Positions 16,289 through 16,803 of a stretch of DNA of 24,445 nt are shown here, piece by piece. Numbering within the stretch: the first letter of the stretch is position 1; every line of letters starts with the position of its first letter. This DNA comes from Nitrososphaeraceae archaeon (GTDB lineage Archaea > Thermoproteota > Nitrososphaeria > Nitrososphaerales > Nitrososphaeraceae): assembly GCA_044870765.1 (NCBI GenBank), contig JBIOZG010000007.1, positions 1 through 24,445 of the forward strand. The letters run 5' to 3'. Position numbers and translations under genes: made by a program. A model generated the notes under the pieces. The model saw only the letters and a program-made list of their open reading frames with translations. It had not been told where the DNA came from and ran no database searches.

Positions 16289-16484
16289 TTAAATTTATTT
16301 AAGATCTTGGAAAATACGAGGGAAACACAAAAGGCGTAGAGTCAATACTGTTGAGTTATCTATAATTCGCAATACAATAGTTTCAGCCATTATTTCATCC
16401 ACCATTGTAGTCATCAATCCATCAATCCATCATTCCTTCCGATGTAATCACTAGGTTTTTATTTTGCTTAAAAGGAATTTTAAG

Positions 16485-16490
16485 GGAGGT
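16485..16490 (+). promoter_or_regulatory. Shine-Dalgarno of the aIF1A gene
   Basis: GGAGGT 7 nt upstream of the TTA at 16498. Confidence 0.7.
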
Positions 16491-16497
16491 TTTTAGA

Positions 16498-16803
16498 TTA
16501 GGAAAGAGAAAAGTACTGAGCGAGTCTGATCTTAAAGAATTAGTAATGCCTCAACAGGGTGAGTTGCTAGGACGTGTGATAAAACTAGTTGGCGGGGATA
16601 ACATAATTGTAAAATGCACAGACGGTAAAGTTAGAACATGTAGGATTAGAGGAAAGATAAAAAGACGTATGTGGATAAGAGAACACGATCTGGTTCTTAT
16701 TGCACCTTGGGATTTTCAGACTGAAAAGGCAGACATTGTTTGGAGATACATTTCTGCTCACGCTGAAAAGCTCCAAAAAGACGGTCACCTTGAAGGAATT
16801 TAG
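16498..16803 (+). CDS. eif1a: Translation initiation factor aIF1A; true start probably the non-canonical TTA at 16498 (first ATG is 16546)
   Basis: C.DGK.R.CRIRGKIKRRMWIRE.DLVLIAPWDFQ..KADIVWRY signature. The upstream in-frame extension GKRKVLSESDLKELV looks like the normal basic N-terminal tail. Confidence 0.93.
   Translation, partial: LGKRKVLSESDLKELVMPQQGELLGRVIKLVGGDNIIVKCTDGKVRTCRIRGKIKRRMWIREHDLVLIAPWDFQTEKADIVWRYISAHAEKLQKDGHLEGI

Follow-up and report, generated by a model that had tools for sequence, protein, structure and literature searches.

The gene for translation initiation factor aIF1A in a Nitrososphaeraceae archaeon has no ATG, GTG or TTG at its beginning and most likely starts at a UUA codon, which is conserved throughout its genus. 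In an even sample of the family (117 loci from 18 genus codes) the same codon is TTA in 68, ATA in 48 and ATG in 1, which suggests that making this factor is tied to how strictly ribosomes choose start codons. That a UUA, mismatching the initiator anticodon at two positions, opens this gene is inferred from sequence comparison alone, and the regulatory part is a hypothesis.

The aIF1A locus

The window analysed is a 24 445-nt stretch (contig JBIOZG010000007.1, positions 1 to 24,445 of the forward strand, GCA_044870765.1). It holds GGAGGT at 16485-16490 (+), the spacer TTTTAGA at 16491-16497, and TTA at 16498-16500. GGA AAG AGA AAA GTA follows, in frame with the first ATG at 16546-16548, 48 nt downstream, and with the stop TAG at 16801-16803. 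The stop-to-stop frame opens at 16411 after a TAG at 16408-16410, and a listing of its open reading frames gave the ATG at 16546 as the first ATG, GTG or TTG. The sequence-only reading had described this arrangement, and its observation holds in every element. It had also held that aIF1A proteins of this group begin MGKR(K/Q)V, and relatives with ATG at the homologous codon do read MGKRKV or MGKRQV.

The whole proposed coding sequence (16498-16803, +) has 101 codons plus TAG, and its product is LGKRKVLSESDLKELVMPQQGELLGRV.... Codons 2-16 (16501-16545) encode the basic N-terminal tail GKRKVLSESDLKELV, followed by the eIF-1a/IF-1 OB-fold domain at 16558-16746. The product matches Pfam eIF-1a (PF01176) over profile positions 1-64 of 64 with 76.1 bits against a curated cut-off of 30.2 (E 1.6e-21). 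It is the only match found in the 96.65%-complete assembly. A search of 60 relatives found the gene in 58; nearly all matches start at residue 1 of the query, and they run to residue 98-101. The tail, GK[RK][KQR]V..., is aligned from residue 1 in relatives of the order and phylum.

Conservation of the codon

A sequencing error of TTG to TTA had been put forward as the mundane alternative, and tabulating the codon before GKR had been set beforehand as a test. Within the genus this codon is TTA in 35 of 35 loci, from the window and 34 other genomes. One further genome had no match, and one had only a fragment at a contig end that was left out. Two of the 35 (genomes G020 and G034) are flagged unpublished; without them the count is 33 of 33. 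Eighty public records encoding close relatives, the best 80 of 143 found, all titled Nitrososphaeraceae, Nitrososphaera, Nitrosopolaris or higher ranks, give TTA 56, ATA 23, TTG 1 and no ATG. To avoid that selection we drew the family evenly: of 131 genomes 123 had a match, and the start region was read in the 117 loci counted above. Matches that were fragments or did not begin at residue 1, 32 unlisted matches, and the unpublished G241 and G271 were left out. The single ATG belongs to a divergent second copy in a genome that also has a TTA copy (loci L370 and L329). These counts refute a sequencing or assembly error, and we found nothing in favour of that or of a pseudogene; the frame is intact and the gene is single-copy.

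Several genomes carry two or three aIF1A paralogues, all with non-canonical starts (ATA plus TTA, or ATA plus ATA): L272, L315 and L338 in G281; L326 and L348 in G222; L263 and L351 in G303; L043 and L044 in G043. The trait therefore survives gene duplication. G222, G281 and G303 are single-contig genomes.

RNA-library data from four studies hold parts of the gene, all as contigs. One 4236-nt contig (X3), with 24 differences over 701 bases, covers the site and keeps TTA, although it may derive from DNA in the library. Contigs of the other three (X1, X2 and X4) begin at 16501, 16527 and 16539, two of them next to adapter sequence; they do not cover the TTA and say nothing firm about the transcript start.

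The codon is a start codon by homology. In 26 loci from other families of the order, the codon directly before GKRKV is ATG 14, TTG 6, ATA 4, ATC 1, TTA 1. In 29 loci of a phylum-wide draw it is ATG 12, TTG 11, GTG 3, CTG 1, with two alignments that began at residue 3 and could not be scored; one locus is shared between the two samples. TTG is thus unusually frequent outside the family, and the TTA/ATA state may be the extreme of a wider tendency. In many of these loci an in-frame stop lies immediately or a few codons upstream, such as TAG directly before ATA in L047, before TTG in L038 and before CTG in L169.

On a gene tree built without the first codon, the 80-row family clade (SH-aLRT 100) holds only TTA, ATA and one TTG. 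It has TTA in all major branches, at least three switches to ATA and one to TTG. The tree is from a quick search with a midpoint root, so directions are tentative.

Coding constraint

In the 57 distinct TTA-type loci, codons 2-16 keep their amino acids while changing synonymously: Gly2 uses four codons (GGA, GGT, GGC, GGG), Val6 four, Leu7 six, and the leucines at positions 12 and 15 four each. Leu7 is CTN in 51 of 57. Position 1 takes only TTA, ATA, TTG, ATG and, once, ATC in this comparison, and never the CTN codons that dominate the other leucines of the tail. The pattern is more than chance. The hexamer coding score is 0.71 for 16501-16545 against -0.24 for 16411-16497.

The preceding codons vary non-synonymously, contain stops, show indels, and in one species carry a one-base deletion. 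In 11 TTA loci an in-frame stop lies six codons or fewer upstream with neither a canonical nor a near-cognate codon in between (TGA-GAC-TTA in L121). The same holds for 14 ATA loci, and a 15th, L040, has its stop 10 codons upstream, again with none between. Alternative in-frame starts upstream were rejected. ATT at codon -7, used by some gene calls (for example database product P0002, MLTEVFKL...), is present in only 26 of 38 distinct genus loci, and in 6 of them a stop separates it from the TTA. GTT at codon -3 is out of frame in 5 loci and is followed by TGA in L121. Scattered upstream ATG, TTG and GTG codons are not conserved.

A protein starting at the ATG at 16546, 85 aa long, is in agreement with several database gene calls (P0096, P0099, P0102). 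It would leave the upstream conservation unrelated to translation, and is contradicted by the comparative data. That ATG, read here as internal Met17, is replaced in 7 of 57 distinct TTA-type loci by ATA, TTG (2), CTC, AGG, AAG or TTA, five of these being non-start codons (ATA, CTC, AGG, AAG, TTA). Relatives with ATG at codon 1 also encode the same tail. We consider this reading very unlikely.

Comparison with other genes and codons

As a control we examined aIF1 (SUI1), the factor credited with rejecting non-AUG codons. It starts with ATG in 30 of 30 loci of the same genus (28 of 28 without G020 and G034). In other families it is ATG in 17 of 20, GTG in 2 and TTG in 1. ATG therefore totals 47 of 50 for aIF1, against 26 of 55 for aIF1A in other families and 1 of 117 within the family.

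TTA and ATA showed no enrichment as starts elsewhere in this genome. Behind SD-like motifs TTA scored 12 of 731 against 14 at a control offset, ATA 20 of 859 against 15, ATG 56 of 1072 against 15, and CTG 11 of 186 against 0. Of the 12 TTA candidates only aIF1A looks like a conserved N-terminus. A test of TATA-like offsets showed no enrichment either, and the power of both tests is low.

Near-cognate starts do occur sporadically in this genome and genus. Three conserved genes have no ATG, GTG or TTG before their recognisable N-termini: a DRG-type GTPase, V-type ATPase subunit B and the aspartate carbamoyltransferase regulatory chain (PyrI). They lie on contigs C5 (- strand, reverse-complement position 53325), C9 (-, 3043) and C37 (-, about 2503) of this genome (G000), and were named from their N-terminal sequences rather than by a family search. 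Each has an SD-like motif 8-10 nt before a CTG; CTG carries such motifs as often as ATG does in this genome. A CbiX-like chelatase gene (C36:34958-35722, -, locus L223/L224), first picked up for a mini-ORF overlapping a TTA, turned out to start two codons later. The codon there is ATA in this genome, whereas most relatives of the genus have ATG, five have TTG, three GTG, and one (L248, in genome G018) ATT. In the same survey, the large subunit of carbamoyl-phosphate synthase (C12 around 93800-93900, +) appeared to change frame near its N-terminus, with GSGAIKIGEAGE in one frame and QFDYSGSQ in another, which could be a frameshift, an insertion or an assembly error.

Anatomy of the start region

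The genome's 16S rRNA ends ...GGATCACCTCCT, so that GGAGGT is a six-base Shine-Dalgarno (SD) match seven bases before the TTA. Its spacing to the TTA varies by 1 nt among relatives, as expected for an SD and not for a codon. A match of 4 nt or more to GGAGGTGATC at -18..-4 accompanies TTA in 47 of 57 loci, ATA in 21 of 27 and TTG in 12 of 17, but ATG in only 6 of 26; outside the family it accompanies non-ATG starts in 18 of 26 against 6 of 26. Relatives are not independent samples in these or the other counts. ATA-type genes (for example L109, L283, L308, L324-L330) lack GGAGG and carry TGAT(C/T)/GGAT(C) 3-5 nt before the start, complementary to the GGAUCA part of the 16S tail. A GGGAT motif has been noted just before amoB, for which no common start could be defined (PMC3379541).

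A TATA-box-like element, TTTTTATT, lies at 16456-16463 (+), 42 nt upstream of the TTA; its role as a promoter is inferred. The hexamer starts at -42 in 33, -41 in 11, -40 in 9 and -38 in 4 of the 57 distinct TTA-type loci, and mostly at -37 to -39 in ATA loci. In ATG genes of this genome such hexamers peak at -31 (23 hits against a background of about 5), the leaderless arrangement, so the element here is not at the leaderless distance. TATA boxes are likewise placed 23-24 nt before the ATG starts of amo genes in these archaea (PMC3379541). From these offsets alone, without 5'-end data, we predict a transcription start at 16487, plus or minus a few nt, with a leader of about 11 nt in the window and about 6-11 nt across loci. 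This predicted start falls inside the SD-like element, part of which may therefore not be in the mRNA.

No conserved RNA structure was found around the start: RNAalifold on 48 distinct rows gave no consensus pairs, and the MFE of the window's own 75 nt has z = -0.77.

No initiator tRNA gene with an anticodon changed to match UUA or AUA was found, although base modifications cannot be seen in DNA. ARAGORN gave an incomplete set because many tRNA genes carry introns, the Rfam tRNA model gave 36 hits, and neither reported the initiator as such. A first motif pattern missed it and a looser one located it at C50:11344-11461 (+). It is canonical, with A1..U72, a GGG/CCC anticodon stem and anticodon CAT, and is interrupted by two introns at non-canonical places.

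We also considered that translation of the GKRKV frame follows another event nearby. This could be termination-reinitiation after a tiny upstream frame, 5'-end-dependent entry on the very short predicted leader, or initiation with an elongator tRNA. In its favour, TTA-G and ATA-G always create an overlapping TAG in the +1 frame, as in translational coupling, where a stop overlaps the first codon of the gene. No upstream frame has a conserved start to feed that stop, however. In the TAG frame the candidate first codon is GGG, CGG, CTG, ATG, CAG or TGG in different species, stops interrupt the frame in others, and the ATA group has no start-like codon in it at all. Families with ATG, TTG or GTG at the same codon have no overlapping stop, and no slippery site for a frameshift was found. 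We regard this explanation as unlikely.

Annotation and literature

Database gene calls for this protein are inconsistent, ranging from 85 to 162 aa. TTA is not known as an allowed start in NCBI table 11, and TTA-type genes are called truncated (85 or 97 aa) or with spurious extensions of 105-162 aa. Some NCBI records of Nitrososphaera/Nitrososphaeraceae MAGs give products of 101-102 aa beginning MGKKKV or MGKRKV (P0023, P0043, P0054, P0065, P0029), which appear to accept ATA; one of them matches an ATA-type locus (L131).

Literature searches, which did not extend to supplementary proteome tables, found no discussion of the start codon of archaeal aIF1A, of non-AUG starts in Nitrososphaera, of UUA starts outside organelles, or of autoregulation of an archaeal initiation factor, and two reviews mention none. 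TTA is annotated as a start in mitochondrial genomes. The papers found using such phrases were organelle and insect reports, none concerning a free-living cell; these are organellar systems with altered decoding, and the starts are annotation-level claims.

Discussion

Our best explanation, held with moderate confidence, is that aIF1A is translated from the UUA at 16498 on an mRNA that probably has a very short leader carrying GGAGGU. This would place the UUA in the ribosomal P site, where the ordinary initiator tRNA (anticodon CAU) would be accepted although only the middle base pairs. UUA combines the two single mismatches that relatives use separately, U at position 1 as in UUG and A at position 3 as in AUA. 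The comparisons establish that no canonical start exists, that the codon is homologous to start codons in relatives, that coding constraint begins at it, that the feature is conserved family-wide and specific to aIF1A, and that the initiator tRNA gene is canonical. The transcription start, the SD function, decoding as Met by the initiator tRNA, and any feedback are inferred. Against a UUA start, it differs from AUG at two positions, and no cellular gene is known to have been shown to start there. Measured initiation at such codons in E. coli is far below 1% of that at AUG, which is hard to square with an abundant essential factor.

In this view the weak codon is not an accident, and selection appears to hold the start weak. 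ATG is avoided in 116 of 117 family loci while aIF1 keeps it, and the one-step improvement from TTA to TTG is seen once in 80. In a published reconstruction with 61,358 AUG, 5,080 GUG and 2,468 UUG ancestral starts, switches towards AUG were favoured in prokaryotes (PMC5622118). The sequence-only reading proposed an archaeal feedback loop analogous to those of bacterial infC and eukaryotic eIF1, and this interpretation is partly supported. Such a loop, in which complexes that lack aIF1A or have low stringency accept the UUA, so that aIF1A sets its own level through start-codon fidelity, explains the pattern economically, and would be its most likely purpose, but it remains tentative. Published work credits aIF1, not aIF1A, with discriminating against non-AUG codons, including AUU (PMC4705826), leaving even the sign of any feedback open.

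The main rival is a fixed 'dimmer', in which UUA or AUA is the true start but simply sets a low translation rate, or has drifted, in a lineage that tolerates weak starts. The sporadic near-cognate starts above and the frequency of TTG across the phylum make this possible. Drift does not explain the avoidance of ATG and TTG, however, and a fixed low rate could also be set by the promoter.

The closest system is bacterial infC (IF3), autoregulated through its AUU start codon, also an initiation factor gene with a conserved non-canonical start behind an SD as the proposed sensor of stringency. IF3 has no known archaeal homologue, aIF1A being the homologue of IF1, and AUU differs from AUG at one position where UUA differs at two. 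The infC feedback is shown experimentally, while that for aIF1A is inferred. Eukaryotic eIF1 and eIF5 (Ivanov 2010 and Loughran 2012, cited in PMC4705826) likewise set start-codon stringency and control their own synthesis through a deliberately poor initiation site. They use AUG in a poor context (eIF1) or uORFs (eIF5) during scanning, rather than a non-AUG codon on a predicted short SD-type leader, and eIF1A/aIF1A is not among the described cases that we saw.

If UUA and AUA really start this gene, the accepted set of start codons for cellular life is too narrow, and gene callers mis-annotate a universal translation factor in an abundant group of soil nitrifiers. The gene would also offer a natural substrate for asking which factors enforce codon-anticodon checking in the P site. 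It would be the first case, as far as our searches show, of an archaeal initiation factor whose synthesis is wired to start-codon stringency, extending the infC/eIF1 logic to the third domain and to the IF1/eIF1A family.
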